Positions 7,254 to 56,293 are shown, counted from the first letter of the stretch. The stretch is DNA of 57,951 nucleotides from Acidobacteriota bacterium (GCA_022711715.1 JAKLEC010000004.1:1-57951); one strand, 5' to 3'. Notes: generated from the sequence alone by a model not told the origin. Numbers and translations are program-made.

Positions 7254-7364
7254 AAAGGTAAAAGGAAAAAGTAAAAAGGTAAAAGTGAAGCGGGCAATTT
7301 CCGAACCGGTTGCATGAGCGATTTTTTTGCTTACTTTTCCCTTTTTCCTTTTACCTTTTTCCTT
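7254..7364. repeat. Purine-rich module (AAAAGGT-type tract, 7254..7291) and its pyrimidine-rich inverted copy (7329..7364), forming a long imperfect hairpin just 3' of eno
   Basis: aaaggtaaaaggaaaaagtaaaaaggtaaaagtgaagc, about 37 nt of loop, then gcttacttttccctttttccttttacctttttcctt. Hand pairing gives a bulged stem of about 30 bp. Confidence 0.8.
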
Positions 7365-7378
7365 ATTAGTATTTGCCG

Positions 7379-8596
7379 ATGAATACGCCAGACAATCCCG
7401 TCGGCCGCAATCTGTGGAAGATCGTGGCCCTGAAGTTCCTCGGCGATTTCCTGCCCATCGCGCCGGTCCTGATCCTCTTTTATACGGCCAACGGACTGAA
7501 TTCCACGCAGATCTTCACCATCCAGGCCGTGTTCCACCTGGCGGTGCTGCTGCTGGAGGTCCCCTCCGGCTACCTGGCCGACGTGATCGGCCGCAAGCGC
7601 ACCCTGGTATTCGGCGCGATCTTCTTCCCGCTGGGGCTCGCCCTCTACACCAGCGGCCGGAGTTTCGCCGCCTTCATCGCCGCCGAGACGCTGCTGGCCG
7701 TCAGCGTCAGCATGCGCTCGGGCTGCGACTCGGCGCTGCTTTTCGACAGCCTGCGCCAGCTCGGCCGCGAGGGGGAGTACAAGCGCTTCGAGGGGCGCTG
7801 CGCCCTGTTCGCCCGCACCGGCACGGCGGTCTCCTCGGTGGCCGGCGGCCTGCTGGCCGCGGTCTTCCTGCGCCTGCCCTTCCTGGTCAACACGGCCGCC
7901 GCGCTGCTCATGCCGGCGCTCTCCCTGGGCCTGAGCGAGCCCGAGCGCGAAAAGCGGCCCGGCAAGAACCCGCTGCGCGACATCCTGCGCATCTGCCGCG
8001 ACTGCCTGCTGCGGGCCTCCATCCGGCCGCTGATCCTTTCCTGCGGGCTGCTCATGGCCAGCAACCTGACCGCCCTCTGGGCGTACTTCCTCCTCTACCA
8101 GGAGCTCGGCATCGGCGTCGGCTGGTTCGGCGTCCTATTCGCCGTCTTCCAGCTGGCCGGCGCCCTGGGCGGGGCGGTCGCCCATCCCTTCAGCGAGCGA
8201 TTCGGGCATCGGCCGCCGCTGTTCCTGGCCCTGCTCAGCCCCTTGTTCTATGTCCTGATCGGCCTGTTCCCCAGCGCCCGGCTGCTGCCGCTGGTTATGG
8301 CCAACGCCTTCCTCTGGAACCTGGCCTACCCGGTCCTTTTGGAGCGGCTGAACCGCCAGGTCGGCTCCGACGTGCGCGCTACCGTCCTCTCGCTGGCGGG
8401 CATGGCGGGCAGCGTGACCTTCATCGTGGTTGCGCCCCTGTTCGGCCGCCTGGTCGACGCCGTCTCCCTGTCCGCCGCTTTCGTCGCCCTGGGGGCGTTT
8501 TTCCTCCTGGCTGGCGGCTGGCTGCTGGCGGCCATGCTCCGGAACTGGCCAGAAGCCGAGGCAAGGCAAAAGGCAAAAGGCGAAAGGCAAAAGTGA
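7379..8596 (+). CDS. MFS transporter
   Basis: Multi-TM protein with an MFS-like loop motif GYLADVIGRKRT. The ORF track starts at TTG 7373 and the first ATG is 7379. The last ~13 codons and the stop lie inside an AAAGGC repeat tract. Confidence 0.8.
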   Translation: MNTPDNPVGRNLWKIVALKFLGDFLPIAPVLILFYTANGLNSTQIFTIQAVFHLAVLLLEVPSGYLADVIGRKRTLVFGAIFFPLGLALYTSGRSFAAFIAAETLLAVSVSMRSGCDSALLFDSLRQLGREGEYKRFEGRCALFARTGTAVSSVAGGLLAAVFLRLPFLVNTAAALLMPALSLGLSEPEREKRPGKNPLRDILRICRDCLLRASIRPLILSCGLLMASNLTALWAYFLLYQELGIGVGWFGVLFAVFQLAGALGGAVAHPFSERFGHRPPLFLALLSPLFYVLIGLFPSARLLPLVMANAFLWNLAYPVLLERLNRQVGSDVRATVLSLAGMAGSVTFIVVAPLFGRLVDAVSLSAAFVALGAFFLLAGGWLLAAMLRNWPEAEARQKAKGERQK

Positions 8597-8681
8597 AAAC
8601 CGTTGCCTGGCGATGTTTTTCTGATTTTAGAAGTTCGTTGAATGCTGTTGCTATCACTGACACAAACACGAACACTAACAC
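8558..8681. repeat. Repeat modules at the MFS 3' end: an AAAGGC/AAAAGG tract (8558..8600) plus a WAACAC hexamer tract (8651..8681, reverse form of the GTGTTW module)
   Basis: gaggcaaggcaaaaggcaaaaggcgaaaggcaaaagtgaaaac, then ..gctgttg ctatcactgacacaaacacgaacactaacac. Confidence 0.8.
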
Positions 8682-8745
8682 GGAGAGATCGTTCTTCTCT
8701 CTCCTCGGGTGCTTGGAATTTTGAGTTTGATTCAAGGGGGAATCG

Positions 8746-9459
8746 ATGAAAAATCTGACCTATTCTATAGCCCCTGATGTCTTCGCGGCGTTTCCCGGTT
8801 ACCGCCGCGGCGTGGTGGTCGCCCGCGGGGTGCGCAACGGCGATTCGCCGCCCGAGCTGGCCGCTATGCTGCGGAGCGAGGAGGCCCGGGCGCGGCAGCG
8901 GCTGAGCCTGGAGACGCTGACCGCCGAGCCGCAGCTGGCTTCGTGGCGCGAGGCCTTCCGCCGGCTGGGCTACAAGCCCGGCGAATTCCGGCCTTCGATC
9001 GAGGCGCTGCTGCGCCGGGTGCTGAAGGGGCAGGAGCTGCCCGCGATAAACGGTCTGGCCGACATCGGCAACATCGTCTCGCTGCGCCGCCTGCTCCCGG
9101 TGGGGGGCCACGCCGTCGACGTGCTGGCCCGGGACATCGCCCTGCGGCCGGCGAGCGGGGCGGAGGAGTTCGTCCCCTTCGGCACGGAGGAAGTCGAACG
9201 CCCGTCGGCGGGGGAGTTCATCTTCGCCGAGGGGAACAGGGTCCTGACCCGGCGCTGGATCTGGCGCCAGGCGAACCATACCCTGCTGCTGCCCGGAACG
9301 ACCGCCGTCGAGATCAACCTCGACGCCCTGCCGCCGGTCACCGACGAGGAGCTGCAGGAGGCGGCGCGCGATGCGATGGAGCTGGTCGGCCGCTTTTGCG
9401 GCGGCTCCTGCCGCTTCACTGTCTTGTGCCGGGACAATCCGGCCATGAGCCTGGATTGA
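8746..9459 (+). CDS. B3/B4 tRNA-binding domain protein (PheT B3/4-like, stand-alone)
   Basis: 237 aa with an N-terminus typical of stand-alone B3/4 proteins: ..IAPDVFAAFPGYRRGVVVARGVRNG.. and ..FRPSIEALLRRVLKGQELPAINGLADIGN... RBS aaggggg precedes the ATG. Confidence 0.7.
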   Translation: MKNLTYSIAPDVFAAFPGYRRGVVVARGVRNGDSPPELAAMLRSEEARARQRLSLETLTAEPQLASWREAFRRLGYKPGEFRPSIEALLRRVLKGQELPAINGLADIGNIVSLRRLLPVGGHAVDVLARDIALRPASGAEEFVPFGTEEVERPSAGEFIFAEGNRVLTRRWIWRQANHTLLLPGTTAVEINLDALPPVTDEELQEAARDAMELVGRFCGGSCRFTVLCRDNPAMSLD

Positions 9460-9539
9460 CCTGACGGCCAGTCCATTGATGCCGAAAACCGGCCAAAACC
9501 ATATCCACTTCGCGGACGTATGTACACTTTGGAAAACAA

Positions 9540-9557
9540 AATTCAAAAAATTGAATT
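9540..9557. promoter_or_regulatory. AT-rich palindrome AATTCAA-N4-TTGAATT upstream of the M16 peptidase pair (candidate operator)
   Basis: Perfect 7-bp inverted repeat with a 4-nt spacer in an otherwise GC-rich genome, about 50 nt upstream of the ATG at 9610. Confidence 0.3.
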
Positions 9558-9609
9558 AGCATCGGGAGTCAAGGAGCGCATCGTCAATTTCTTACATAAG
9601 GAGAGGCAC

Positions 9610-11115: not shown

Positions 11116-11127
11116 AGGAAGGACCCC

Positions 11128-13242: not shown

Positions 13243-13258
13243 TTCCCGGTCTTTCGGC

Positions 13259-13295
13259 GGCGGGGCGCCCTCAGGCGCCCCGCCTTTTTTATTTT
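13259..13295 (+). terminator. Rho-independent terminator after the M16 pair
   Basis: Perfect 11-bp stem ggcggggcgcc / ggcgccccgcc with a 4-nt loop, followed by ttttttatttt. Confidence 0.8.
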
Positions 13296-13398
13296 CCTCA
13301 CGCAGGTTCGTACATGGGTTTGGCTGTGTATGGACAAGTATAAAGCCAACAGGACGAGGGATGGGATGAAATTCCAGTTTCCGAACAAGCTGAGGCAA

Positions 13399-13471
13399 GT
13401 GTCAGTGTGAGTGTCAGTGTCAGCAAATCCAAACGGAAATGATGCTAGATTCTTGCTGTCACTGTCACTGC
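13399..13471. repeat. GTGWCA hexamer module pair (13399..13424 and 13455..13471)
   Basis: gtgtcagtgtgagtgtcagtgtcagc, 30 nt, then gctgtcactgtcactgc. The hexamer is quasi-palindromic, so the two tracts can pair with about one mismatch per repeat. Confidence 0.7.
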
Positions 13472-13652
13472 GCTTCGTTTGGGTCATTTGGACATTGGTG
13501 TTTTAGTCTTACCAGGTCGTACGCTTTATGAGTGAAATTATCTGCGAATTTGTGAAAGAATCATTTTCAGCTCCTGCCTTGCGCGCGCTTGCCGGCCGCG
13601 GTAAGATGGGATCCATCCGGGCGCTCCGGGCGGCCGGCAGCGAGGTGAACGC

Positions 13653-15352: not shown

Positions 15353-15634
15353 ATGCCCTGGTTCCTGTACCTGCTCCGTTGCGGCGACGGCTCGCTTTAC
15401 ACGGGAATCTCCAACGACGTGGCGCGCCGCCTGGCCGCCCATCGCGCCGGCCGCGGGGCGCGATACCTGCGGGGCCGGGGGCCGCTGACCCTGGTGCGCC
15501 GCATCCGCGTCGGCAGCCGCAGCGACGCCCTGCGGGCCGAGCACCGGGTCAAGAGCCTGAAGAAAGAGCGCAAGGAAAAGCTGGCCCTGGGCAAGGTCAG
15601 GCTGAAGGATATTCTGAATAACGATCTATCGTGA
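15353..15634 (+). CDS. GIY-YIG nuclease family protein (UPF0213-like)
   Basis: MPWFLYLLRCGDGSLYTGISNDVARRLAAHRAGRGARYL is the GIY-YIG signature. The stop codon lies inside the ATCGTGACG start of a repeat arm. Confidence 0.85.
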   Translation: MPWFLYLLRCGDGSLYTGISNDVARRLAAHRAGRGARYLRGRGPLTLVRRIRVGSRSDALRAEHRVKSLKKERKEKLALGKVRLKDILNNDLS

Positions 15635-15721
15635 CGCGTAACGCGTAACGCGTGACGCGAAGCAGCAAAGGATCGAGCGATTGCGGTTTCTCGTCACTCG
15701 TCACGCGTCACTCGTCACGAT
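15628..15721. repeat. Inverted pair of the GTCACGC/GTTACGC heptamer module, forming a long hairpin between convergent genes
   Basis: The left arm atcgtgacgcgtaacgcgtaacgcgtgacgcg (15628..15659) and the reverse complement of the right arm ctcgtcactcgtcacgcgtcactcgtcacgat (15690..15721) match at about 27 of 32 positions. The loop is about 30 nt. Confidence 0.85.
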
Positions 15722-15736
15722 GGTTCGTGTGAGTCC

Positions 15737-17340: not shown

Positions 17341-17405
17341 GTGGACCTCGCTAGTTTTCTGCCATTCTACCCGATTGGCCGGTTCATTTCAACGGAACCA
17401 AGCAT

Positions 17406-17718
17406 CCGTGTCCGTGACGGTGACCGTGTCAGCAAGAAACCGCTCAACGATTACTTTGTGTTAGTGTTTGTGTTAGTCAATGCCAGAGCCGACCTCTTGC
17501 TGTTGCGAATCCCGAATTACGAATCACGAATTACGATAGGCCCTTTGTTGTTTCCTTTCACGCATAACGCATAACGTATAACGATAGGTTGTTGTTTTCC
17601 GTACGCCGTACGCCGTGCGCCGAGTCCAGTTCGTCCCCGTCACTCGTTTCTTGTCACGTGTCACGATCGGTCGATCCGATGCTGTTCTCGTCACGCGTCA
17701 CGCGTTACGCGTCACGAT
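17406..17718 (+). repeat. Full seven-module mosaic repeat array (module order M1-M2-M3-M4-M5-M6-M7)
   Basis: M1 GTGWCN hexamers 17406..17433. M2 GTGTTW 17455..17476. M3 ACGAATY heptamers 17505..17537. M4 ACGCATA 17558..17585. M5 GTACGCC 17599..17622. M6 GTCAC-type 17638..17667. M7 GTCACGC/GTTACGC 17687..17718. Confidence 0.9.
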
Positions 17719-17732
17719 AGCTCGTTGCTTTT

Positions 17733-18470
17733 TCAATAATTGATCAGGATGGGCCTGGGCTTGAGCACGTGGCCGACCAGCGCCAGGCCGCTGCGGCGGA
17801 CGACGGCCAGCGCCCGCGTGGTCAGCGTGGTCTGCGACACCAGGAGCGGGACGCCGGCCTGCAGGCACTTGAGCGCCATCTCGGCCGAGACGCGGCCGGT
17901 GGTGAACAGGCCGCAGCGGCCGAAATCGATGCCGGCGGCGAGCCCCCAACCGATCACCTTGTCGACGCTGTTGCTGCGGCCGATGTCCTCGCGGCTGGCC
18001 AGGATGCGCCGGCGGTCCATGTCGGCCAGCATGGAGCAGTGGATGCCGCCGTGGCGGCGGAAGCGGGCCGCCCGGCCGGGGAGTTGCTCCATTAGGGCGA
18101 CGGCCTGCGCCAGGGTGAACGTGAAGCCGCGGCGCACGCGGGGCGGAGCGGAGTACCTCCGGGCCGGCATGGCCCCGCCCGAGGGCCCTGTCACCTGGTC
18201 GGGGTCGAAGCGCAGGCCGCCGCGGCGCAGCCGGACCAGCGCCCGGCCGCCGGCCAGGCGCAGCGAGGCCAGGTCATTGGCCGAGGCGATCAGCCCCTGG
18301 CTGAAGATCCAGCCCAGGGCCAGCTCGCGGCGGCCGAAAGGGGAGCAACTGAGGCTCGCCAGCGGCCGGCCGTCGACCACGACGGTCAACAGCGTCTCCG
18401 CCGGCAGGTCGACCAGGCCGATCTGCCGCCGTTCAGGCGTCCCTGCCCTTCCGGCTCTCAATGTAGGCAT
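17733..18470 (-). CDS. fdhD: Formate dehydrogenase accessory sulfurtransferase FdhD
   Basis: GGIHCSML..REDIGRSNSVDKVIGW..TTGRVSAEMALKCLQAGVPLLVSQTTLTTRAL. The 5' end as drawn overlaps the mobA 3' end by 38 nt, so the true start may be internal. Confidence 0.8.
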   Translation of the reverse strand: MPTLRAGRAGTPERRQIGLVDLPAETLLTVVVDGRPLASLSCSPFGRRELALGWIFSQGLIASANDLASLRLAGGRALVRLRRGGLRFDPDQVTGPSGGAMPARRYSAPPRVRRGFTFTLAQAVALMEQLPGRAARFRRHGGIHCSMLADMDRRRILASREDIGRSNSVDKVIGWGLAAGIDFGRCGLFTTGRVSAEMALKCLQAGVPLLVSQTTLTTRALAVVRRSGLALVGHVLKPRPILINY

Positions 18471-20070: not shown

Positions 20071-20107
20071 GTATCACAGCCTTTGCATATTTTCAAATAT
20101 CGAACTC

Positions 20108-20234
20108 AGGGAAAGGCAGAGGGAAGAGTCAGGGATGGCAGAGGGAAGAGCGTGTGGGAAAAAGCCCTTTCCAAACCTCCTTCCCACTTTATCTTCCCTC
20201 TGTCTTTCCCTCTGCCTCTCCCTCTCTCTTTCCT
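20108..20234. repeat. Purine-rich AGAGGGA-type module (20108..20150) with a pyrimidine-rich inverted copy (20187..20234)
   Basis: agggaaaggcagagggaagagtcagggatggcagagggaagag ... ctttatcttccctctgtctttccctctgcctctccctctctctttcct. Strongly strand-asymmetric imperfect inverted repeat. Confidence 0.8.
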
Positions 20235-21461: not shown

Positions 21462-21491
21462 TAGGGGCCGGCTAGGTACTTATAGGGCTTC

Positions 21492-21659
21492 AAGGTTCGA
21501 CGTTCGAGGTTCGACGTTCGACGTAACGAAAACCAACTCGCTTGGGTGCCGAAGAGGTCTAGTCAGGGGCTGATCGTTATTTCTGAAAGATCACGATCGA
21601 AGATCTGTAAATTGCTGTTACTTGTCACGCGTCACGCGTTACGCGTTACGCGTCACGAT
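21492..21659 (+). repeat. Partial repeat array: a GTTCGAS heptamer tract (21492..21528) and the M7 tract GTCACGC/GTTACGC (21621..21659)
   Basis: aaggttcgacgttcgaggttcgacgttcgacgtaacg, then tcacgatcg..attgctgtta linker signatures, then cttgtcacgcgtcacgcgttacgcgttacgcgtcacgat. Confidence 0.8.
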
Positions 21660-21691
21660 AATCCTTTTCTGTGCTGCCGCTACCACTATCA

Positions 21692-22378
21692 CTAAGCAGA
21701 CAGGAAATTAGAAAAGATCTGCTGGTTCTGGGCCAGGTCAGAATCGTCCTTCCTGTCGTCAAAGTAGCGTTTCCTGAAATCGGGGGAAGAGGCTTCTTCC
21801 GCAGTGAAGATCTCCTCGATGCTGCCGGGGCCGTACTCGGGGTGGAACTGCACTCCCCAGACAGGCAGGTTTTTCATCTGGAAGGCCTGCACGGCGCAAT
21901 CGAGGGTCGAGGCCAGGACGGAAAATTCAATTCCCAGGCCGGTCACTTCGTCGAAATGGGTTACGACCGAGACCAGGGGCTTGCGGATGCCGGCGAAGAG
22001 CGGATTGGCCTGGAAGCTGATCTCCCGAAAGCCGAATTCCGGGGTCGGCGAGTGGCGGACATGCTCCTTTCCCAGGAGCTCCTTGGCGATGAACTGGTGG
22101 CTGTAGCAGATGCCGAGGACCGGCTTCCTCGCCTGGATGAACTCCCGCAATGCCTTTGCCAGAGGCCTTTCCCACGGATGATCGTCCACCACCGACGCCT
22201 CCGAGCCCGACATGATCATGTGGCTGAAGCGGGACAGGTCGGGCAGCTGGGGATGGTTCAGCGGCCGCCATAATTTGACTCCCATCCTGGCCTTTGCAGC
22301 GCAGCCCAACATCAGGCGGTCGAACGTCGCGGCATAGGCGTCGGCAACAAACGTGTCGGCAACCAGCAGCATGTCCAA
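21692..22378 (-). CDS. Class I glutamine amidotransferase-like protein
   Basis: Nucleophile elbow VLGICYSHQFI and VWGVQFHPEY (His/Glu of the triad). Confidence 0.8.
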   Translation of the reverse strand: MDMLLVADTFVADAYAATFDRLMLGCAAKARMGVKLWRPLNHPQLPDLSRFSHMIMSGSEASVVDDHPWERPLAKALREFIQARKPVLGICYSHQFIAKELLGKEHVRHSPTPEFGFREISFQANPLFAGIRKPLVSVVTHFDEVTGLGIEFSVLASTLDCAVQAFQMKNLPVWGVQFHPEYGPGSIEEIFTAEEASSPDFRKRYFDDRKDDSDLAQNQQIFSNFLSA

Positions 22379-22409
22379 CTCCTTCGCGCCGTATTATACA
22401 CGAGTTCAG

Positions 22410-22713
22410 CGTCCGTGACAGTGCCCAGGGGAACCCCAACGACCTCTTTGTGTTAGTGTTTGTGTTTGTGTTGGCAAACGCAAGAGCTGACCTCTTGCTG
22501 TTACGAATCACGAATGACGAATTACGAATTACGATTGATCCCTTGCTTTTTCTCATCACGCATTACGCATAACGCATGACGATAGATCCAGATGTTGTTC
22601 CTCGTCACTCGTCACCCTGGATCGTACCGTGCTGTTGCCGTACGCCGTACGCCGTATGCCGTACGCCTTACGCCGAGTTCATTCCGTTCTCGTCACGCGT
22701 CACGCGTCACGAT
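22410..22713 (+). repeat. Full mosaic repeat array (order M1-M2-M3-M4-M6-M5-M7) ending 8 nt from the stop of the AmpG-family gene
   Basis: M1 22410..22425, M2 22447..22474, M3 22501..22535, M4 22553..22583, M6 22601..22617, M5 22637..22675, M7 22689..22713. Confidence 0.9.
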
Positions 22714-22720
22714 AGCTCGT

Positions 22721-24205
22721 TCATTTCTTCGGCACCCAGATCAGCAGGATCATGGCGGGGATCGAGATTAGAAAGCTGACGCCGAACATGCCGCTGTAGC
22801 CGAGCCAGGAGGCGATGAAGCCGCTGCTGACGCCGGCGACGATGCCGCCCAGGCTCATCAGTCCGGAGCCGATGGCGAAGTGGGCCGCCTTGAACTCCAT
22901 TTTGCAGATGCGCATCAGGAAGGTGGTCAGCACCGCCGTGCCCAGGCCGCTGGCGAACTGCTCGAAGCCGGTCACGCCGGCAAACGCCGCCAGGTTGAAG
23001 ACGCCGACGGGAACCGGGACCGCCGCGCCGGTGTTCACCTGCAGGAAATGGGAGAAATACCCCGCCAGGAGCATGTAGACGACGTTGGTCAGGTTCTGCG
23101 CCAGCAGAAAGGGCCAGATCACCCGCTTTAGGCCGAAGCGCGAGATCATCCAGCCGCCGATCAGCGCGCCGGCGATGGAGCAGGGCAGGCCGATGCCGCC
23201 GGCGATCCAGCCGTAGTGCTCCTTGATGCCCAGGTCGACCGCGAACGCCGATACCATGGAACTGACCATGAACTCGCCGCTGCGCACCAGGATGATGAAG
23301 GCCAGGACCAGGCCGATCTTTTCCTGGTCCATGAAGGTCAGGAAGGCCCGGCCGTAGAACGAGTCGGGATCGCGGGTCAGGACGGCGGCCAGCCGGCGGC
23401 GGAACGCGGCCAGCAGGACCAGCGCCAGCAGCAGCCCCAGGCCGATGACGCGGGGAAAATTCAACTCGGCAAGCAGGGGAGACGAGGTCTTCCAGCCGAC
23501 GAAGGGCGCCGAATTGAAGAACCAATAAACGGCGGCGACGAGGGCGATGGCGAGCGCGACGTTGCGCGCCACCCGCGCCCTGGCGAAGAGGCCGAGCATG
23601 GCGCGGAAGGAGCGGCGCTGCGCTTCGCACTCGGGTAGGAAGAAATAATGGTAGGCGGCCAGCAGGCCCAGCAGCAGCCCGGAGAGCAGAAAGGCCAGGA
23701 CCCAGGAGACCGTGGTGCCGATGGTGACGATCACCCCGGTGCCGGTCAGCATGGCCACGCGATAGGCCATCACCCGGTAGCCGAGGAACTTCGTCTGCTG
23801 CGCCTTGTCCAGCGCCGCCAGGTAGTAGCCGTCGATGGCGATGTCGTGGGTGGCGGCGACGAAGGCGGCGATGAAGAACAGCACGGCAACCAGGCGTGGC
23901 GCCGTCGGCATGGGCACGAGGAAGGCGGCAGCGCCGATGAGAACGGCCAGCATCGCCTGCATGGCCAGCAGCCAGCGCTTCTTGGTGGCGAACTCGTCCA
24001 CCAGCGGACCCCAGAAGAACTTGAGGATCCAGGGCAAACCGAAGAATGTGGTCAGTCCCACCGCTTCCAGGCTGACGCCGCGGTCGCGGAAGAAGACGGC
24101 GGAGACCGAACGGATCACGGAAAAGGGGAACCCCTCCGCGAAATAGGTGCTGAAGCACCAGATGTGCGTTTTTCCAGCGATGGATGTCGGCTTGTCTCCG
24201 GCCAT
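22721..24205 (-). CDS. MFS transporter, AmpG (muropeptide/acetyl-CoA transporter) family
   Basis: FSTYFAEGFPFSVIRSVSAVFFRDRGVSLEAVGLTTFFGLPWILKFFWGPLVDEF matches the conserved AmpG N-terminal pattern. 494 aa, multi-TM. Confidence 0.75.
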   Translation of the reverse strand: MAGDKPTSIAGKTHIWCFSTYFAEGFPFSVIRSVSAVFFRDRGVSLEAVGLTTFFGLPWILKFFWGPLVDEFATKKRWLLAMQAMLAVLIGAAAFLVPMPTAPRLVAVLFFIAAFVAATHDIAIDGYYLAALDKAQQTKFLGYRVMAYRVAMLTGTGVIVTIGTTVSWVLAFLLSGLLLGLLAAYHYFFLPECEAQRRSFRAMLGLFARARVARNVALAIALVAAVYWFFNSAPFVGWKTSSPLLAELNFPRVIGLGLLLALVLLAAFRRRLAAVLTRDPDSFYGRAFLTFMDQEKIGLVLAFIILVRSGEFMVSSMVSAFAVDLGIKEHYGWIAGGIGLPCSIAGALIGGWMISRFGLKRVIWPFLLAQNLTNVVYMLLAGYFSHFLQVNTGAAVPVPVGVFNLAAFAGVTGFEQFASGLGTAVLTTFLMRICKMEFKAAHFAIGSGLMSLGGIVAGVSSGFIASWLGYSGMFGVSFLISIPAMILLIWVPKK

Positions 24206-24262: not shown

Positions 24263-24540
24263 CTGTGACGAGAACGGAATGAACTCGGCATACGGCGCAC
24301 GGCATACGGCGTACGGCAACGGCTCGATACGATCCGGGGTGATGAGGAACAGAAGCATCTGGATCTATCGTTATGCGTTATGCGTGAAAAGAAACAACAA
24401 GGGGCCTATCGTAATTCGTGATTCGTAATTCGTGATTCGCAACAGCAATAGACCGGCTCTTGCATTTGCTAACACTAACACAAACACGAACACAAAGAGG
24501 TCGTTGAGTTTCTTGCTGACACTGTCACCGACACCGACAC
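24263..24540 (-). repeat. Mosaic repeat array in reverse orientation (M7 remnant-M5-M6-M4-M3-M2-M1 read left to right on the + strand), abutting the tilS stop codon
   Basis: 24265..24289 is the exact reverse complement of 22672..22696 (25 nt). The modules cggcatacggcgcacggcatacggcgtacggc, atcgttatgcgttatgcgtga, atcgtaattcgtgattcgtaattcgtgattcgc, ctaacactaacacaaacacgaacacaaa and gctgacactgtcaccgacaccgacac are all present. Confidence 0.9.
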
Positions 24541-25908
24541 CTAGGGCTTGATCGAAATCCTAACGAACGGCCCTTTGTCGCCGTCCTGGACGGCGAAGGC
24601 GGCGGCCAGGGGCGAGCCGCAGGCCCAGACCAGCCGGCCGTCGCCATTCTCCAGCACCGGCCGCAGCGGCCGCAGCGGCGCCGGCACTCCCGAGGCGCGG
24701 ACCATCTCGATCACGGCTTGCCGGTAAGGTGAGTGGATCTTGCGGTACTTGTCGCCCGGCTTTGGCGGCCGCAGGCGCAGGGGGAAGCGCAGCTTCCCCT
24801 CGGCCACGACGACGGAGAAGTTGTCCCGCGGCGGCTGGAAGCGGCCGGTCCGGCTCACCGTCACTGCCGCCCCGATCTCCGGGATGGACCGGCGGCCCGT
24901 GCCCGTGACCTCGAGGCGATAGCCCTTGACGCGCAGGGAGTCCGGATGGATCCAGCCCTTGGCGAAGCTCAGGTTCACTCCCGGCAGGGAGAGTCCGCGG
25001 CCGGTCTCCACGCTCTCCAGGAAGGCGGCGACGTGCTCGCTGCCGATCCCCAGCAGGTCGCCCTTGACCCGGCGCAGGTACTCGCGGGCCAGGTGGCGGG
25101 CCATGGCCGGGTGCAGCCCGGCGAAGGCGCGAGCCGGCAGGACGCTCCCCAGCCGGAGCTCGCGCTCCAGGATGCGCCGCGTCTCCTGCTGGAAGTGGTC
25201 GAACTCGTCCTGCAGCAGGAGCACGGTGCGGAAGACGCGGTCCTCGACGTCGGGCTCGATGGCCCGCGCCGCCGGCATCAAGTCGTGGCGGATGCGGTTG
25301 CGCAGGAAGTCGTGTTCCAGGTTGGTCGGGTCGCGATAGAAGGCGATGGCGTTGCGCTCCAGGAACGCCAGGACCTCCCCGGAGGAGAAGACCAGCAGCG
25401 GGCGGACGATGTGCCTTTCCTTGCTGGCATAGATCGCCGAGAGCCCCTGCAGGCCGCTGCCGCGGAAGAGCTTGATGAAGAAGGTCTCGGCCAGGTCGGA
25501 GCGGCTGTGGGCCGTGGCGATGCGCACCGGGCCGGAGCCGGCCGGGGCCAGCCGCCGCGCCAGCGAGTGGAAGAAATCGTAGCGCGAGATCGAGGCGGCG
25601 TGCTCGAGGTTCAGCCGGTTCTCCTCGCGGAAGCGCCGCACGTCGCGGCCGCCGGTCTCGAGCTCGATGCCGCGGCCGGAGCAGAAGGCGCGCGCCCACT
25701 CCTCCTCGGCAGCGGCGTCGGGGCGCAGGCGATGGTTGAAGTAGGCGGCGACCAGGCGAAAGGGGAGGAACCTCCGCAGTTCCTGCAGCAGGACGGCGGC
25801 GGCGACCGAGTCCTTGCCGCCGGAAAAGCCGAGGACGACGGTATCGCCGGGGAGAATGAGGCCGTGGCGCTCGATATTGTCCTTGAACGGCGGGAAGAGG
25901 AGCTTCAT
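24541..25908 (-). CDS. tilS: tRNA(Ile)-lysidine synthase TilS
   Basis: PP-loop VVLGFSGGKDSVAAAVLL. The start is taken at MKLLFPPFKD (ATG 25908), because the 504-aa track ORF extends through the tRNA gene. Confidence 0.88.
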   Translation of the reverse strand: MKLLFPPFKDNIERHGLILPGDTVVLGFSGGKDSVAAAVLLQELRRFLPFRLVAAYFNHRLRPDAAAEEEWARAFCSGRGIELETGGRDVRRFREENRLNLEHAASISRYDFFHSLARRLAPAGSGPVRIATAHSRSDLAETFFIKLFRGSGLQGLSAIYASKERHIVRPLLVFSSGEVLAFLERNAIAFYRDPTNLEHDFLRNRIRHDLMPAARAIEPDVEDRVFRTVLLLQDEFDHFQQETRRILERELRLGSVLPARAFAGLHPAMARHLAREYLRRVKGDLLGIGSEHVAAFLESVETGRGLSLPGVNLSFAKGWIHPDSLRVKGYRLEVTGTGRRSIPEIGAAVTVSRTGRFQPPRDNFSVVVAEGKLRFPLRLRPPKPGDKYRKIHSPYRQAVIEMVRASGVPAPLRPLRPVLENGDGRLVWACGSPLAAAFAVQDGDKGPFVRISIKP

Positions 25909-26015: not shown

Positions 26016-26076
26016 ATACAGGGCCAATTATACCCGAAACCGCAGAGCTTCGCAATATGGGAACAGACGACCTTTC

Positions 26077-26252
26077 CTGACGCGTAATGCGTGACGCATG
26101 ACGGGGAACAGCAGCATCTGGATCAATCGTTATGCGTTATGCGTAATGCGTTATGCGTGATGAGAAACAGCAAATAACCTATCGTGAATCGTGATCCGCA
26201 ACGGAAAGATATCGGTTCATGCTGTTACTAACACTATCACTAACACTAACAC
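26077..26252 (-). repeat. Partial mosaic array in reverse orientation (M7-like, M4, M3, M2), ending 10 nt before the stop codon (26263..26265) of the TPM-domain gene
   Basis: ctgacgcgtaatgcgtgacgcatgacgg, atcgttatgcgttatgcgtaatgcgttatgcgtga, atcgtgaatcgtgatccgc, ctaacactatcactaacactaacac. The linker gaacagcagcatctggatcaatcgttatgcg is nearly identical to 24348..24378. Confidence 0.85.
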
Positions 26253-26262
26253 TGCGTTCGTT

Positions 26263-33973: not shown

Positions 33974-34650
33974 AAGCGGCCGGGCTCGTCCTGCTCGCAG
34001 GCGACCCCGGCCGCCGCGGCGTCCGGCGCGACCCGCTGCTGGAGGAGGCTCTGGCACGCTTCGGCCGGGCGCGTCCCGGCGTGGCCTACGTGGGCGCCGC
34101 CAGCCAGGACAACCGCCTCTTTTTCTTGTGGATCTCCTCCCTGCTGAAGAAGGCGGGGGCGGGCGCCGTGCGCCTGGCGCCGCTGGCCGGGCGGCGGGGT
34201 GATCCGCAGCAAGCCCTGGCGATTCTGGAAGACGCCGACGTCGTATTCGTCAGCGGCGGCGATGTCGGGCTCGGCATGGGCATCCTGGGCGCGACGGGCC
34301 TCGACGGGCCCCTGCGCCGGCTCGGCAGCTCCGGCAAGCCGTTCATCGGCCTGTCGGCCGGCAGCATCATGCTGGCCCGCAGCTGGGTGGCCTGGGCCGA
34401 CGAGAGCAACGACGCCAGCGCCGCGCCGTTCCCCTGCCTGGGGCTGGCGCCGCTGTTGTGCGATACCCACGGCGAGGGCGAGGGCTGGCAGGAGCTGCGC
34501 ATGCTGCTGCGCCTGACCGGCGAGCCGTCCGGCTTCGGCATCCCCGCCGGCGCCGCCCTGGCCGTCGGCCGCGACGGCTCACTGGCAGCGCTCGGCAAGC
34601 CCGTGCGGCGGCTGACCGCGACCGGGAGCTTGGACAACCTGGAGCCTTGA
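33955..34650 (+). CDS. Peptidase S51 (dipeptidase E / cyanophycinase-like) family protein
   Basis: ADVVFVSGGDV and nucleophile motif GLSAGSIML, then CDTHGEGEGW. An alternative GTG start at 33970 forms a GTGA overlap with the upstream stop. Confidence 0.65.
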   Translation: MAEQAVKAAGLVLLAGDPGRRGVRRDPLLEEALARFGRARPGVAYVGAASQDNRLFFLWISSLLKKAGAGAVRLAPLAGRRGDPQQALAILEDADVVFVSGGDVGLGMGILGATGLDGPLRRLGSSGKPFIGLSAGSIMLARSWVAWADESNDASAAPFPCLGLAPLLCDTHGEGEGWQELRMLLRLTGEPSGFGIPAGAALAVGRDGSLAALGKPVRRLTATGSLDNLEP

Positions 34651-34658
34651 GCCGGTCC

Positions 34659-34742
34659 TTCGTGATTCGTAATTCGTAAAAACAATAGCCGAGCCATTGC
34701 TGTTTTCTTCCGAATTACGAATTACGTCTCACGAATTGCGAA
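34659..34742. repeat. Inverted pair of the ACGAATY heptamer module, forming a hairpin 3' of the S51 gene
   Basis: ttcgtgattcgtaattcgtaa, about 30 nt including the attgctgtt linker signature, then ccgaattacgaattacgtctcacgaattgcgaa. Confidence 0.8.
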
Positions 34743-34819
34743 GCACTGCCATCTCCTGCAACCATTTCCATCTCCCGTGCATCTTAGTCGGTGAAACGCG
34801 AATTACGAGGAGGTTTCGC

Positions 34820-35863: not shown

Positions 35864-35893
35864 GGGACGGGCGCCAGCCCGTCCCATTTTTTT
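35864..35893 (+). terminator. Rho-independent terminator after the PDZ gene
   Basis: gggacgggc gcca gcccgtccc (perfect 9-bp stem) followed by a T7 run. Confidence 0.8.
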
Positions 35894-35910: not shown

Positions 35911-36030
35911 CAAAGGAAAAAGGTAAAAGTCAAAAGGTAAAAGGTGAAAGTGGAAGGCCCTTTATCGGTGAAGTGTCAAGATATTTAGTTCTGTGATTGC
36001 TGTTGCTAACACTAACACTATCACTATCAC
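35911..36030. repeat. Purine-rich AAAAGGT module (35911..35957) plus a WAACAC/ATCACT hexamer module (36005..36030)
   Basis: caaaggaaaaaggtaaaagtcaaaaggtaaaaggtgaaagtggaagg ... ttgctgttgctaacactaacactatcactatcac. Confidence 0.8.
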
Positions 36031-36042
36031 TTCTTTTTGCGG

Positions 36043-48762: not shown

Positions 48763-48927
48763 GATGTTTTATTTACCTCAGGTTCCATATTCATTGAGGG
48801 GGCGGGAGTATGGCCGGGAACGGACGCGCGCTGGTTTGGGTTCCTTTCTCGCCCTCGCGAAAACCGGATCTCTTAATCCGCTATGATAGCCCAAGTCGGC
48901 GGCAAAGTCAATCAGATCAACCGATCG

Positions 48928-49003
48928 ATCGTGACGCGTGACGCGTAACGCGTGACGAGGAGCCGCGTGGGAACGACCTGTCGTGACGCGTCACGCGTCA
49001 CGC
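48928..49003. repeat. M7 heptamer module (reverse form, 48928..48959) plus a palindromic GTGACGCGTCAC tract (48981..49003)
   Basis: atcgtgacgcgtgacgcgtaacgcgtgacgag ... tcgtgacgcgtcacgcgtcacgc. Confidence 0.8.
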
Positions 49004-49038
49004 TTATCTTGTAAAACGGCGGCATCTGTGCTAAAAAT

Positions 49039-51164: not shown

Positions 51165-51314
51165 AGATCCGCCCAGCGCCTGGGTTTGACAAAGAAATGG
51201 TGTTGTGTTAAGGAAATGGCGGAGGCAGGCCATGACGAGTTCAGCCCGGGCGGCCGCCTGGCCGCGGCGGGAAATGCCGGCCGCGGGCCGGCGCAGCCGC
51301 ATCACCCGTCCCGG

Positions 51315-54913: not shown

Positions 54914-54923
54914 AGGAGGGAGG

Positions 54924-55508
54924 ATGAAACAAGACCGTCTCGCGGCGCCGCCCGCTGCCGGGCGCGCCTGCGCCGCCTTTTCCTTTGCCGGCTTTTGGCG
55001 GGAGAACCAGGCCACGCTGCTCCTGGCCGTCGTCGCCGTGGCCGTCGTCGCCGCGCTGCTGTTCTGGCTTGCGCGCCGCCGCCGCCAGGACTCCTTTCCC
55101 GAGCTGCGCCCCGGGCAGCCCGGAGCCGGGTCGGCCGACGATTTCTCCGCCACGCTGATCGAGGGGCAGGCGGAACCGCCAGAGCGCCCTGCCGCCCCTT
55201 CCCCCGGCCTGCACGGAAAGATTGAGGTGCTGGTCCACGGCCAGGTGATCAGCTCCTTCCTGGTCACCGACAACCCGCTGCCCATCGGCCGCGACCCCGG
55301 CCAGGCCCTGGTCGTCATCCAGGAGCCGATCGTCTCCAAGCTCCATTGCCAGGTCTTCGCCCGCGGCGGCCAGGTCTTCGTCAAGGACCTGAACTCGACC
55401 AACGGCGTCTATGTCCGCGAGGAAAAGATCGCTGAACGCCCGCTCCAAGACGGCGACCAGGTATTCCTGGGCAAGAAAGGAACGGTGCGGATCGTCTATC
55501 ACGCATAG
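54924..55508 (+). CDS. FHA domain protein with an N-terminal TM anchor
   Basis: PIGRDPGQALVVIQEPIVSKLHCQVFARGGQVFVKDLNSTNGVYV is the FHA core. Confidence 0.85.
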   Translation: MKQDRLAAPPAAGRACAAFSFAGFWRENQATLLLAVVAVAVVAALLFWLARRRRQDSFPELRPGQPGAGSADDFSATLIEGQAEPPERPAAPSPGLHGKIEVLVHGQVISSFLVTDNPLPIGRDPGQALVVIQEPIVSKLHCQVFARGGQVFVKDLNSTNGVYVREEKIAERPLQDGDQVFLGKKGTVRIVYHA

Positions 55509-55516
55509 GAGGAAGA

Positions 55517-55966
55517 ATGAAGCGCTGCGCATGGATCCTGCTGGTCCTCGTTCTCTCCGGCGGGCTGTTCGGGCAGCAGGCGGTCGACGGGGACGCCCTC
55601 CTGGCCGACCCCGAGTGGCGGAGCGGCTACGACGGCTGCCAGCCCGATCCGGCTCTCCTCGCAAGCCTGCGCGAGCGGATCCGCGGCTCTCGCCTGGAGG
55701 TCTACTTCGCGTTCTGGTGCGGCGACTCGCGCAACCACGTCCCCGTGTTCAAGAAGATCGTCGACCTCCTGGACCTCCCCGAGCTGGCGGTCGAGTATTT
55801 CGCGGTGGAGCGCAAGGCCTCTCCGGAGCAGAAGTATTACGTCGCGGGCAAGGGGGTGGAGCGCGTGCCCACCTTCATCGTGTACCGCGACGGCAGCGAG
55901 ATCGGGCGCATCATCGAGAATCCAAAGGTATCCATACTAGAAGACCTATTGAACATCGTACTCTAG
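55517..55966 (+). CDS. Secreted thioredoxin-fold protein with a CxxS (WCGDS) motif
   Basis: Signal MKRCAWILLVLVLSGGLFG, VYFAFWCGDSRNHVP, and ..VPTFIVYRDGSEIGRI typical of the Trx fold. Confidence 0.6.
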   Translation: MKRCAWILLVLVLSGGLFGQQAVDGDALLADPEWRSGYDGCQPDPALLASLRERIRGSRLEVYFAFWCGDSRNHVPVFKKIVDLLDLPELAVEYFAVERKASPEQKYYVAGKGVERVPTFIVYRDGSEIGRIIENPKVSILEDLLNIVL

Positions 55967-56046
55967 GTACTTGGCGTACGGCCGGCGGCCTCGACGGACC
56001 GCCGCGGCGTACGGTTGACGGCAACAGCATTCATGAAGAACTCGGT

Positions 56047-56293
56047 GCCAGTGTCAGTGATGATGTCAGCAGGAAGCTCAGCGGCTTCCTTGTGTTCGTG
56101 TTTGTGTTAGCAAACGCATGAACCGATCTCTTGCCGTTTCGAATAACGAATCACGACAGATCCCTTGCTGTCTCTCATCCCGCATCACGCATGACGCATA
56201 ACGAGAGAACTAGATGCGGCTCATCCTCGTCACCCTGGATCGTATCGTGCTGTTGCCGTACACCGTATGCCGTACGCCGTGAGCCGTACGCCG
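56047..56293 (+). repeat. Mosaic repeat array (order M1-M2-M3-M4-M6-M5, no M7) between convergent genes, preceded by a GTACGGC-type hairpin at about 55975..56016
   Basis: gccagtgtcagtgatgatgtcagc, cttgtgttcgtgtttgtgttag, ttcgaataacgaatcacgac, cccgcatcacgcatgacgcataacgag, ctcgtcaccc, gccgtacaccgtatgccgtacgccgtgagccgtacgccg. 56226..56264 matches 22608..22646 at about 37 of 39 positions. Confidence 0.9.

Follow-up and report, generated by a model that had tools for sequence, protein, structure and literature searches.

Tandem repeat tracts in the intergenic spacers

The window is a 57,951-nt stretch of DNA that includes genes for enolase, MFS transporters, a GIY-YIG protein, rubrerythrin, FdhD, and tRNA-Met. 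The host, an uncultured bacterium, belongs to Aminicenantes (Acidobacteriota), judged by named homologues of 75-82% identity, and has a GC content of about 66%. Tracts of 3-6 tandem copies of a 6- or 7-nt unit are found in 14 of the 25 intergenic spacers (Table 1). Tracts were detected with Tandem Repeats Finder and direct reading, and a separate stringent caller was used for counts. All 14 sites and ten unit types listed in the initial annotation are present, as are its three forms: ordered arrays, inverted-pair hairpins, and isolated modules.

With the stringent caller, 19 of 22 tracts of period 5-7 are intergenic, and intergenic DNA makes up 5,351 nt (9.2%) of the window. In 200 dinucleotide-preserving shuffles, intergenic tracts average 0.015 and never exceed 1, compared with the 19 observed. 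In the host, the repeat family occupies about 40% of the intergenic DNA.

Table 1. Repeat elements of the window, with the range of the period-6/7 tracts (Tandem Repeats Finder and reading), predicted folds, and setting.
Element	Position	Strand	Tracts (kb)	Setting and fold
Hairpin: (AAAGGWA)n arm, apical linker, (TWCCTTT)n arm	7254..7364	.	7.25-7.36	Tandem Repeats Finder arms 7254-7285, 7334-7364; between enolase stop (7234) and MFS start (7379); -37.6 kcal/mol, z = -3.9
(AAGGCAA)n tract, then leader TGCTGTT + (NNACAC)n hexamer tract	8563..8681	+	8.56-8.68	(AAGGCAA)n tract forms the last codons and stop of MFS gene; MFS_1 domain ends at residue 348/405
Hairpin (AGTGTC)n / (CTGTCA)n, leader CTTGCTGT	13398..13470	.	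13.40-13.47	Downstream of canonical terminator 13259-13284
Long hairpin (GTGACGC/GTAACGC)n ... (GTCACKC)n	15620..15725	.	15.62-15.73	Between convergent GIY-YIG and rubrerythrin genes; first unit contains GIY-YIG stop codon; -60.9 kcal/mol, z = -7.5
Array A17	17405..17726	+	17.40-17.73	Between FdhD stop and promoter-like site of 370-aa gene
Hairpin of AGAGGGA-type units	20106..20233	.	20.11-20.23	Divergent promoter spacer; -70 kcal/mol
Isolated (GTTCGAS)n module	21489..21524	+	21.49-21.66 (with next)	Found by Tandem Repeats Finder
Isolated module: leader TTGCTGTTACT, (GTYACGC)n, GATAA	21613..21660	+	21.49-21.66 (with previous)
Array A22	22406..22720	+	22.41-22.72	Module order as in A24 and A56; end 4 nt from stop codon of AmpG-like MFS; promoter-like site overlaps left edge
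Array A24	24265..24541	-	24.27-24.54	Inverted orientation; 0-1 nt from TilS-like stop codon
Partial array A26	26068..26253	-	26.07-26.25	Between TPM-phosphatase stop codon and tRNA-Met promoter-like site
Hairpin (RATTCGT)n - AAACAATAG ... CATTGCTGTT - (CGAATTA)n	34655..34745	.	34.66-34.75	Begins 5-8 nt past S51 peptidase stop codon; -28.1 kcal/mol, z = -3.9
(AAAGGTA)n module, then leader TTGCTGTTG + (CTAACA/CTATCA)n	35912..36031	+	35.91-36.03	Between convergent genes, downstream of canonical terminator 35864-35885
Inverted pair (GTGACGC)n / (GTCACGC)n	48922..49003	.	48.92-49.00	Divergent DEAD-helicase / glycosyltransferase spacer; -45 kcal/mol, z = -2.7
Array A56	56003..56296	+	56.00-56.30	Between convergent genes; begins with inverted GCCGTAC-like module carrying AACAGCA; final (GCCGTAC)n tract 10 nt from PatA_N stop codon

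Short-read contigs of other samples break exactly at the tracts (L003 ends at 13424, L004 starts at 7340, and L006 ends at 34594), as would be expected if the repeats came from misassembly or misbinning of repetitive reads. Such an origin is extremely unlikely because five independent assemblies, made from different samples with different pipelines, contain the array sequence in identical or near-identical form. The assemblies sharing the window sequence include the NCBI MAG, two JGI metagenomes, and Logan assemblies. Related genomes also carry the same elements with clean differences in unit number.

Searches of the window with Rfam covariance models returned only tRNA-Met at gathering score, leaving the repeats without a match. 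At E<=1, the only further matches are sub-threshold and resemble miRNA precursors, and they fall on the 20.1-kb hairpin. A search of fifteen related loci against Rfam gave zero matches, and the repeats have no match in the viral contig collection. The absence of a transposase, integrase, or cas gene from the window, reported in the initial annotation, is upheld by Pfam.

Modular architecture

The basic module has a polarity: a ~10-20-nt leader containing TGCNGTT comes first, then a single 6- or 7-nt unit repeated 3-6 times in tandem, and heptamer tracts terminate in ACGATAG. In 24 of 67 tracts, TGCNGTT occurs within 20 nt on one side only, versus 0.8% of background windows, and the polar leader is enriched about 20-fold. 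The description in the initial annotation lacks this conserved leader. Each tract is internally homogeneous and uses a limited set of units, with at least 10 unit types in the window, most of them without G-runs. Hexamer modules participate alongside heptamer modules.

Modules in head-to-head pairs have a common apical stem, which reads GCAACAGCA...TGCTGTTGC in the best-preserved copies, and pairs with complementary tracts form a long hairpin. The only sources of palindromy are two paired tracts and the AACAGCA/TGCTGTT head. The predicted folds of the inverted pairs range from -28 to -70 kcal/mol.

Where modules follow one another in series, they make up ~300-bp arrays whose order is conserved. 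In A17, this order is [GTGWCN]n, [GTGTTW]n, [ACGAATY]n-ACGATAG, and [ACGCATA]n-ACGATAG, followed by [CCGTACG]n, a GTCACTC remnant, and [CGTCACG]n-ATAGCTCGTT. Alignment places the same module order in A17, A22, A24, A56, and the partial array A26, and the non-repetitive linkers shared by the five arrays are 65-90% identical. The arrays are oriented either way relative to transcription, A17 and A22 being opposite to A24 and A26, all in minus-strand gene contexts. Compared with shuffles, one strand of the arrays folds with z = -0.7 and the other with z = -2.1 to -3.2. The dispersed family and modular mosaic architecture recognized in the initial annotation are real.

Position relative to genes

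Several elements begin 0-12 nt from a stop codon, in agreement with the initial annotation, and tracts enclose two stop codons (15632-15634 and 8594-8596). All four convergent spacers of the window carry some element. The elements had also been described as absent from promoter spacers, which does not hold. Two of the six divergent spacers carry hairpins (20.1 and 48.9 kb), and promoter-like hexamers directly adjoin A17, A22, A24, and A26.

Elements located 0-12 nt past stops and ahead of the next promoter-like site would suit selected cis-acting RNA structures in 3' UTRs or intercistronic RNA, e.g., for termination, for blocking 3'-5' exonucleases, or as RNase III sites, similar to enterobacterial REP/BIME, with the arrays as multi-hairpin versions. 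The hairpins are predicted to be very stable and are preserved in relatives despite unit changes, and most heptamer repeats of Xanthomonas are transcribed (PMC4692102). As the main explanation, this is possible but rather unlikely. At 13.26 and 35.86 kb, canonical terminators with a GC stem and a T-run stand apart from the repeats and upstream of them, so the repeats are not the general terminators. Most elements lack a following T-run, two hairpins are in divergent promoter spacers, and the arrays occur in both orientations relative to transcription, with one strand no better than shuffles.

Comparison with related genomes

The relatives compared are L123 (98.5% identical), L128 (about 88-90%), the more distant L145 and L148, and L146. 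L123 differs from the window by exact 7-nt indels at 21634-40, 22637-43, and 22691-97. For A22, this amounts to two 7-nt indels, along with one 4-nt indel, and for the module at 21613..21660 to a one-unit indel. At the 13.4-kb spacer, L123 has non-homologous modules in place of those in the window. Four further copies of the module-3 junction are found on three other contigs of this relative, which contain 5-7 tracts per 6-11 kb each and are as rich as the window. These copies support the genome-wide occurrence suggested in the initial annotation.

In L128, most orthologous spacers hold modules unlike those of the window, which argues against a locus-specific function; all seven spacers compared carry some element. 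An AGAGGGA hairpin occupies the site of A24, and the element at 21496-21693 (about 200 nt) is inverted in another spacer. The L128 ortholog of the 15.6-kb hairpin is built of GTGACGA / TTGTCAC units and has a predicted fold of -63.2 kcal/mol. The arms of the window and L128 hairpins have each shifted to different unit variants. G-U pairs make the L128 hairpin 12.7 kcal/mol more stable on one strand than on the other, a point in favor of selected RNA structure, whereas most units of the window arms now carry a C-T mismatch through drift, a point against it.

The AGAGGGA hairpin at 20106..20233 is conserved in position in L123, L128, and L146, with a fold of -74.4 kcal/mol in L128. It is retained at this position in genomes down to 78% protein identity, and compensatory changes are seen, in at least one of the sequences, at 8 of its 35 pairs.

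At the A17 site, L145 and L148 lack the array and carry a canonical intrinsic terminator, so that A17 takes the terminator's place in the window, which also favors an RNA role. A24 and A26 are absent in both, and the genes flanking the A24 site overlap in L148. The architecture of the 34.7-kb hairpin recurs in L148. Otherwise, spacers compared in these more distant relatives are empty or hold an ordinary terminator.

Whole-unit indels between close relatives are consistent with a pure mutational by-product of in-place polymerase slippage, with neither module dispersal nor shared ancestry. Heptamers are the commonest class of long simple-sequence repeats in many bacteria (Mrazek 2007, as summarised in PMC4679880). 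This origin is nevertheless very unlikely. It is contradicted by the non-repetitive linkers shared, together with module order, among the five arrays, and the enriched polar leader and the 200-nt element in different spacers of two genomes also speak against it.

Relation to known repeat systems

In a CRISPR array, direct repeats of 23-50 nt alternate with unique spacers of about the same length, and cas genes usually accompany them. The units here are 6-7 nt and contiguous, with no spacers and no cas genes in the window, and CRISPR is rejected. MITEs have terminal inverted repeats and a target-site duplication and are related to a parent IS. The hairpin forms of the window have inverted arms; no clean filled/empty pair was found in the window's clade, and no parent IS was seen. 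No target-site duplication or mobilising enzyme was found for the window family. The initial claim that the architecture is unlike known systems is too strong, since dispersed intergenic tandem heptamers have already been described.

STRR are intergenic and of high copy number, and STRR units such as CCCCAGT, TTGGTCA, and CAACAGT belong to heterocystous cyanobacteria; none of these is among the window tracts. Cyanobacterial STRR are tandem heptanucleotides (Mazel et al. 1990, as cited in PMC4692102), and Microcystis and Elizabethkingia have mixed assemblages of different heptamers (PMC4679880). The window likewise has dispersed tandem heptanucleotide tracts with several unit types per genome, which can be mixed in one spacer. 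Dispersed, high-copy intergenic amplification of heptamers is found here as in STRR, its genome-wide extent being inferred from the other contigs of the close relative. The differences are the Acidobacteriota/Aminicenantes host of ~66% GC, the unit sequences, the polar leaders, the ordered ~300-bp arrays, and the hexamer modules.

Xanthomonas has 70-75 inverted GGGAATC pairs per genome that are capable of forming stem-loops, and Nostoc has intergenic GGGGAYT heptamer repeats (Rehm et al. 2015, PMC4692102). Features in common with the window are high GC, ~4 units per tract, inverted pairs, independence from IS elements, and repeat length that varies among close species while position is retained. 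In contrast, Xanthomonas has one dominant G-rich, quadruplex-forming unit, whereas the window has at least 10 unit types and head-to-tail arrays. Between Xanthomonas species, 83-90% of repeats are at the same locus; turnover of the window family is much faster.

TAACTGA direct repeats are found in Beggiatoaceae, Cyanobacteria, and Bacteroidetes (MacGregor 2015, PMC4679880). They resemble the window tracts in their 2-6-copy heptamer sets across intergenic DNA, patchy distribution across phyla, and 7-nt indels between strains. They are mostly a few nt upstream of start codons in one orientation, whereas those of the window are mostly after stops and in both orientations. In a search built on the single heptamer GTYACGC, this unit is abundant in at least three distant lineages. 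(GTYACGC)n is plentiful in Bacteroidota and in a clade of low GC, where it is often 4-33 nt upstream of start codons and immediately 5' of Shine-Dalgarno sequences. The low-GC clade also shows insertion/deletion of a tract-bearing element, at one filled/empty site flanked by similar 11-mers. This clade resembles the TAACTGA case more closely than the window's elements do. A GCTGTT linker lies beside the tract in three xanthomonad-like metagenome loci, which were chosen by the search pattern.

LSSR5-11 are over-represented long tandem repeats of 5-11 nt, predominantly heptamers, of free-living bacteria (Mrazek et al. 2007, as summarised in PMC4679880). The window tracts are 5-11-nt tandem repeats beyond compositional expectation, with heptamers predominating; variation comes from slippage in LSSR5-11 and probably also here. 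LSSR5-11 is a purely statistical class, read in that summary as in-place expansion, whereas the window tracts are dispersed homologous modules with shared linkers.

REP/BIME of enterobacteria and REPINs of Pseudomonas (PMC3116915) are, like the window family, abundant extragenic elements with few motif and linker types and inverted-pair hairpins at gene 3' ends, and the REP/BIME element itself lacks a transposase. The REP unit is a 20-40-nt imperfect palindrome, joined to others in alternating orientation by defined linkers, in contrast to tandem 6/7-mers, and identity with REP/BIME is rejected on these grounds. A RAYT transposase gene flanked by REPs accompanies REP families; no Y1 transposase (RAYT) is seen in the 58-kb window.

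Origin and possible functions

Homogeneous tracts, a limited unit set, and genome-wide recurrence could suggest binding-site arrays for sequence-specific DNA- or RNA-binding proteins, with unit types recruiting different paralogues. Candidate binders would be a nucleoid protein, a ToxR-like winged-helix regulator, or S1/Csp/CsrA-type RNA binders. ToxR is a winged-helix regulator acting on TTTTGAT heptads. RNA binders of the S1/Csp/CsrA type were proposed for TAACTGA repeats by MacGregor (PMC4679880), and heptamer repeats altered promoter activity in Nostoc reporters (bioRxiv 10.1101/2022.06.06.494920). The abundance of GTYACGC and its location 5' of Shine-Dalgarno sequences in the low-GC clade point the same way. 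Its presence in several phyla could be convergence, as about 1,170 heptamer classes exist (own calculation), each lineage uses many, and one heptamer was searched. Orthologous genes in relatives 88-90% identical have different units or none, indicating no gene-specific regulon, and no link between the elements and a candidate binder is seen in the window. Binding-site arrays are an improbable explanation.

The leading explanation, somewhat probable, is that the repeats form a dispersed family of selfish or near-neutral DNA, STRR/BIME-like and shaped by slippage and turnover between spacers, with 3'-end hairpins as a possible secondary function. The family would be genome-wide and consists of small non-coding repeats, with no mobility gene of its own in the window. 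Genome comparison shows that tracts gain and lose whole units, and that entire elements have been exchanged, inverted, or relocated to other spacers within <2-12% sequence divergence. Replication slippage would account for the changes in unit number, and each tract is probably homogenised independently, as suggested by the window and L128 arms at 15.6 kb. Spread would occur via recombination or some mobilising activity. The elements would accumulate mainly where insertion is tolerated, i.e., between a stop codon and the next promoter. Transcribed hairpins may secondarily serve as 3'-end structures, by analogy with REP/BIME.

Several observations count against this reading, among them that neither a mobilising enzyme nor a target-site duplication was found for the window family. 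The presence of an element in every convergent spacer and in all seven orthologous L128 spacers could reflect a need for "any element" and not tolerance. The location of A17 at the place of an ancestral terminator hints, from sequence comparison, at a functional take-over in the window lineage. The position-conserved AGAGGGA hairpin, with its apparently compensatory pairs, counts against a selfish or near-neutral family. The abundance and pre-start placement of (GTYACGC)n in other lineages are hard to call purely neutral.

The family is a new, elaborate example of the long-known bacterial heptamer repeats. Its modular leader-plus-tract architecture and its host are new, and its kind is already known from STRR, long simple-sequence repeats, and the GGGAATC pairs of Xanthomonas.

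Distribution and authenticity of the tracts

Tandem Repeats Finder and direct reading of the sequence recover period-6/7 tracts at every site, and with every unit type, named in the initial annotation. Under a stringent caller, 19 of 22 period-5-7 tracts are intergenic, although intergenic DNA makes up only 5,351 nt (9.2%) of the window; 200 dinucleotide-preserving shuffles give an expectation of 0.015 against the 19 observed. Elements occupy 14 of the 25 spacers of at least 40 nt (convergent, 4/4; co-directional, 8/15; divergent, 2/6). By a tally of the listed parts, they total ~2.2 kb, or ~40% of intergenic DNA.

Five independent assemblies contain the same sequence, and in other samples short contigs terminate exactly within tracts. 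The repeats are thus genuine and dispersed, and assembly error, raised initially as a possible explanation, is effectively excluded with near certainty. A metagenome scan finds four further copies of the module-3 junction in GCA_016294905.1, spread over three other contigs with 5-7 tracts per 6-11 kb each, in agreement with the genome-wide system first proposed. The repeats are real, dense, and genome-wide.

The gene map is drawn from genes called on contig DAOOTP010000006.1 (GCA_035390365.1) and Pfam scans of unannotated ORFs. The window is identical to a JGI contig (sample 3300010429), has a GC content of ~66%, and holds 50 protein genes and one tRNA-Met. The organism is present in JGI digester samples 3300010429 and 3300009838. 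As previously stated, neither the gene calls nor the Pfam scans reveal a transposase, integrase, or cas gene in it. Homologues of the AmpG-like MFS transporter (75-82% identity) carry the source names Candidatus Aminicenantes or Acidobacteriota. Two neighbouring large paralogous genes encode 907 and 902 aa and are 78% identical in DNA over the compared stretch; the 902-aa product has Reg_prop beta-propeller repeats, Y_Y_Y, and a LuxR/GerE helix-turn-helix domain. Internal ~141-144-nt repeats of these genes dominate direct-repeat output and have no relation to the heptamer elements.

Module anatomy

The basic module is composed of a polar leader, TGCNGTT, and a tract of one tandem 6- or 7-nt unit. 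The leader lies within 20 nt on one side only in 24 of 67 tracts from the window and its relatives, and on both sides in none; its background frequency is 0.8% of windows. Composite arrays at ~17, 22, 24, and 56 kb (A17, A22, A24, A56) and a partial one at ~26 kb (A26) have a conserved module order, partly permuted in A17. Modules 1-2 are inverted with respect to the others. At the head-to-head junction, the paired leaders form a small inverted repeat (GCAAGAG...CTCTTGC in A22), best preserved as GCAACAGCA...TGCTGTTGC in loci L133, L140, and L144. Complementary tracts at such a junction produce a long hairpin, as at 7.25, 13.4, 15.6, 20.1, 34.7, and 48.9 kb. These six sites fold at -28 to -70 kcal/mol (z = -2.7 to -7.5).

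Many units are one substitution apart (GTCACGC, GTTACGC, ATTACGC, ATAACGC, ATCACGC, ATCACGA, ATTACGA, GTCACTC), which suggests that the modules first diverged from each other and that each tract was later homogenised separately.

In the AGAGGGA hairpin, the G-rich arm has five GGG runs, 8-11 nt apart. With such long loops its predicted G-quadruplex potential is weak, and this hairpin is the sole window element resembling the heptamers that form quadruplexes in Xanthomonas and Nostoc.

Protein C-termini appear to be remodelled by repeat insertion. The GIY-YIG stop codon, TGA, falls within the first CGTGACG unit of the 15.6-kb hairpin, and the protein has 93 aa (90 aa in relative L128). In the 405-aa MFS gene, an (AAGGCAA)n tract supplies the final ~11 codons and the stop.

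Several candidate rules for the units were rejected. Stop codons in all three frames are supplied by GTGACGC and RATTCGT, but GCCGTAC lacks them on both strands, and those of ACGCATA are confined to the opposite orientation. Restriction-type palindromes at unit junctions (ACGCGT, CGTACG) are not general, being absent from ACGCATA, GTGTTA, and AAAGGTA. CRISPR, riboswitch, and tRNA-derived origins are ruled out on anatomy.

Features of the repeat elements and their surroundings (window coordinates unless a locus is named)
Feature	Coordinates	Structure	Basis
Array module 1		[GTGWCN]n, then AGCAAGAAAC...	array alignment A1
Array module 2		[GTGTTW]n, then AGCAAAYGCAAGAGCCGAYCTCTTGCTGTT	array alignment A1
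Array module 3		[ACGAATY]n ACGATAG, then ...TTGCTGTTTCTC	array alignment A1
Array module 4		[ATCACGC/ACGCATW]n ACGATAG, then ...GTGCTGTT	array alignment A1
Array module 5		[GCCGTAC]n, then GCCGAGTTCATTCCGTTCT	array alignment A1
Array module 6		[CGTCACG]n, then ATAGCTCGTT	array alignment A1
Paralogous 907- and 902-aa genes	1-5678, minus strand		
Paralogue DNA compared	1-300 vs 2998-3297		
(AAGGCAA)n tract in 405-aa MFS gene	8563-8596		
Canonical terminators	13259-13284; 35864-35885		
15.6-kb hairpin	15620-15725	arms GTGACGC / GTCACKC	
GIY-YIG stop codon	15632-15634	TGA	
Promoter-like sites beside arrays	17392-17364; 22421-22393; 24243-24215; 26055-27	descending coordinates	
Region after fdhD, window lineage	17341-17732	A17	
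fdhD terminator region, L145; L148	L145:9468-9619; L148:8666-8814	AATTAGCTTGTTA...TAACAAGTTAATT + T-run	
Array stretches with G-U pairing	22400-22725; 17396-17735	minus-strand RNA only	
AGAGGGA hairpin	20106-20233		
AGAGGGA hairpin, G-rich arm	20106-20160		
Exact 7-nt indels against L123	21634-40; 22637-43; 22691-97		
Low-GC palindromic element type 1		ATGAGAAT..tract..ATTCTCATATAAA	
Low-GC palindromic element type 2		GGACTGTAAGAAAATAAC..tract..GTTATTTC.TGACAAC	
Low-GC palindromic element type 3		AGGAATAGAATTTTATTAATTGTCTC..tract..GAGACAGTTATTTAATT	
Low-GC filled site; empty site	L024:1800-1960; L088:2756-2769	left flank TTATATAAATT, right element end TCATATAACTT (filled)	
Xanthomonad-like inverted pairs	L136:5150-5230; L137; L142:7130-7210	GGGATTC / CCGAATC	

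Turnover among relatives

The closest relative, L123 (GCA_016294905.1), is syntenic with the window and 98.5% identical to it. The two differ by exact 7-nt indels at three places and by one 4-nt indel. Replication slippage would lie behind such unit changes. As the sole process acting in place, slippage is very improbable and effectively excluded. In the 13.38-13.56-kb spacer, L123 has a non-homologous replacement built from other family modules.

L128, at ~88-90% identity, has family elements in 7/7 orthologous spacers, mostly unlike those of the window. Its TilS-MFS spacer contains an AGAGGGA hairpin, whereas the window has array A24. The 200-nt element at 21.5-21.7 kb of the window is found inverted in the FdhD-370aa spacer of L128. 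The 15.6-kb hairpin, between convergent GIY-YIG and rubrerythrin genes, is retained in L128 with arms GTGACGA / TTGTCAC, in contrast to those of the window; the arms have evidently been homogenised to other units.

More distant relatives, L145-L148, were compared at 71-82% protein identity. In L148 the TilS and MFS genes overlap, and in L145 and L148 the region upstream of tRNA-Met is without an array. After FdhD, both have a conserved intrinsic terminator, an AT-rich stem followed by a T-run, and then a promoter-like site. In the window lineage this terminator is absent and A17 stands at its position. The AGAGGGA hairpin is kept in L146, and L147 and L148 contain different elements of the family. 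Element load is high in the window, L123, L128, L146, and L147 and low in L145 and L148. By these alignments, the repeat family evidently turns over between spacers.

Transcription signals and RNA folding

Both strong canonical terminators of the window lie upstream of repeat elements, so general termination is not the role of the repeats. In co-directional spacers, arrays are located between the upstream stop codon and the promoter-like site of the next gene. A role as protein-binding arrays is rather unlikely; reporters in Nostoc do show modulation of promoter activity by heptamer repeats (bioRxiv 10.1101/2022.06.06.494920). Both array orientations are found here within minus-strand gene contexts.

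Folded as RNA, A22 has no advantage over shuffles on one strand (z = -0.7) and a moderate one on the other (z = -3.2); the value for A17 is z = -2.1. On the minus strand only, (GUGACGC)n can pair with (GCGUUAU)n through G-U wobble, hence array values of -2.1 to -3.2 there versus -0.7 on the other strand. Modules differing by transitions would thus be potential RNA partners on one strand. Taken together, terminator, orientation, and folding results do not point the arrays to any strand-specific function as RNA. As 3'-end structures, hairpin forms could play a part, and the AGAGGGA hairpin has compensatory changes at 8/35 pairs, though among only five sequences. That the elements are selected RNA structures is a tentative alternative, on balance unlikely.

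Related tracts in other lineages

The (GTYACGC)3 22-mer GTYACGCGTYACGCGTYACGAT occurs at >116 loci in GTDB species genomes, in three groups. The first is made up of high-GC MAGs that look Aminicenantes-like, some of which bear the label Clostridia or Patescibacteria, and the second of several Bacteroidota. The third is a low-GC (36-39%) clade labelled Vulcanimicrobiota or Synergistia (loci L008-L122 in JBEHWO, JBEHWP, DAIOEN, and CAYSLJ records). The 22-mer has no match among IMG/VR viral contigs, giving no sign of a phage vector.

Some of these labels are questionable. The 'Clostridia' MAG L007 has 84% DNA identity to the window across a coding stretch, the 'Patescibacteria' MAG L056 shares 71% identity with Aminicenantes locus L080 over ~600 nt, and the high-GC 'Clostridia' MAGs L061 and L082 bear the same elements; all four look Aminicenantes-like. 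Vulcanimicrobiota MAGs (ER1, ER2, CTOTU7676) match 'uncultured Synergistia' SRP239243_co1_332 (L016 and L038, each against L098). Their DNA identity reaches 96% over kilobases, so one or more of the phylum labels must be wrong, and the low-GC clade is rejected as two phyla and treated as one lineage.

In the low-GC clade, the tract is central in three palindromic element types, or precedes start codons by 4-33 nt, directly 5' of the Shine-Dalgarno sequence. In the latter setting, the tract stands between an upstream CCTC and a downstream GGAGG, an arrangement that could sequester the Shine-Dalgarno sequence; it is missing from the window's clade, and anti-SD/SD pairing was set aside as an explanation. 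A filled and an empty site differ by a ~170-nt tract-bearing palindromic element, inserted or deleted. The filled site is just upstream of an orthologous gene, where the element seems either to have duplicated a -10-like box or to have taken its place. In a search for a parent gene, low-GC loci with at least two tracts had ordinary genes between neighbouring tracts.

Beyond the tract, (GTYACGC)n flanks differ by lineage. A shared 'GAT' tract end, first taken as cross-phylum conservation, was imposed by the search pattern and is withdrawn. Because the search targeted one heptamer, convergence is a possible source of the tract across groups.

Three xanthomonad-like high-GC metagenome loci, selected by search pattern, contain GGGATTC/CCGAATC inverted pairs, the repeat studied in Rehm et al. 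2015. At the apex, their linker, AACAGC...CTCTTGCTGTT, includes GCTGTT and matches the leader of the Aminicenantes modules.

Relation to known repeats and significance

To our knowledge, over-abundant intergenic bacterial heptamers, noted in 1990 (STRR) and 2007 (long simple-sequence repeats), are without an accepted origin or function. For the elements here, the best reading is that of a dispersed, modular repeat family of STRR/BIME-like type. Rfam, at gathering and relaxed thresholds, returns nothing relevant in the window and 15 related loci, and tandem 14-mers in any rotation are not printed in searchable literature text.

As summarised in PMC4679880, the long simple-sequence repeats of many free-living bacteria are most often heptamers, for which slippage was the proposed cause (Mrazek 2007). 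Cyanobacteria carry STRR heptamers. Sets of TAACTGA are present in Beggiatoaceae, Cyanobacteria, and Bacteroidetes; strains differ by 7-nt indels, and assemblages of mixed heptamers are described (PMC4679880). In Xanthomonas each genome has ~180 GGGAATC repeats, among them 70-75 inverted pairs, and most of the repeats are transcribed (PMC4692102). To regard the elements as unlike anything described would go too far: heptamer repeats of this kind are already in the literature, while no description was found there of a polar leader, ordered multi-module arrays, or rapid module replacement, nor a report of these repeats from Aminicenantes.

A broader reading groups the Aminicenantes modules, the Xanthomonas GGGAATC pairs, the Bacteroidota and low-GC (GTYACGC)n tracts, and perhaps STRR as a single class of 'hairpin head plus tandem heptamer' elements that spans phyla. 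A shared enzymatic activity would give rise to these elements and disperse them: it would recognise an AACAGCA/TGCTGTT-type head and template or propagate heptamer tracts. This reading is speculative and improbable; if true, the elements would be mobile or generated DNA of a new kind rather than products of passive slippage.

With moderate confidence, the elements are probably tolerated or selfish DNA, with a possible secondary role for hairpins at gene 3' ends. In practice, they break short-read assemblies, leaving contigs that end in repeats, and at the ends of genes they make reading frames longer or shorter. They belong to a known, unexplained kind of heptamer repeat and extend its hosts to a new lineage, the uncultured Aminicenantes. 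Also added is a modular grammar of polar leader, homogenised tract, and end motif (ACGATAG in heptamer tracts), joined head-to-head or serially, with comparative evidence at 98.5%, ~89%, and 71-82% relatedness for unit indels, tract-wise homogenisation, and wholesale module replacement. The leader motif, if general, would provide a handle for finding what spreads the elements.
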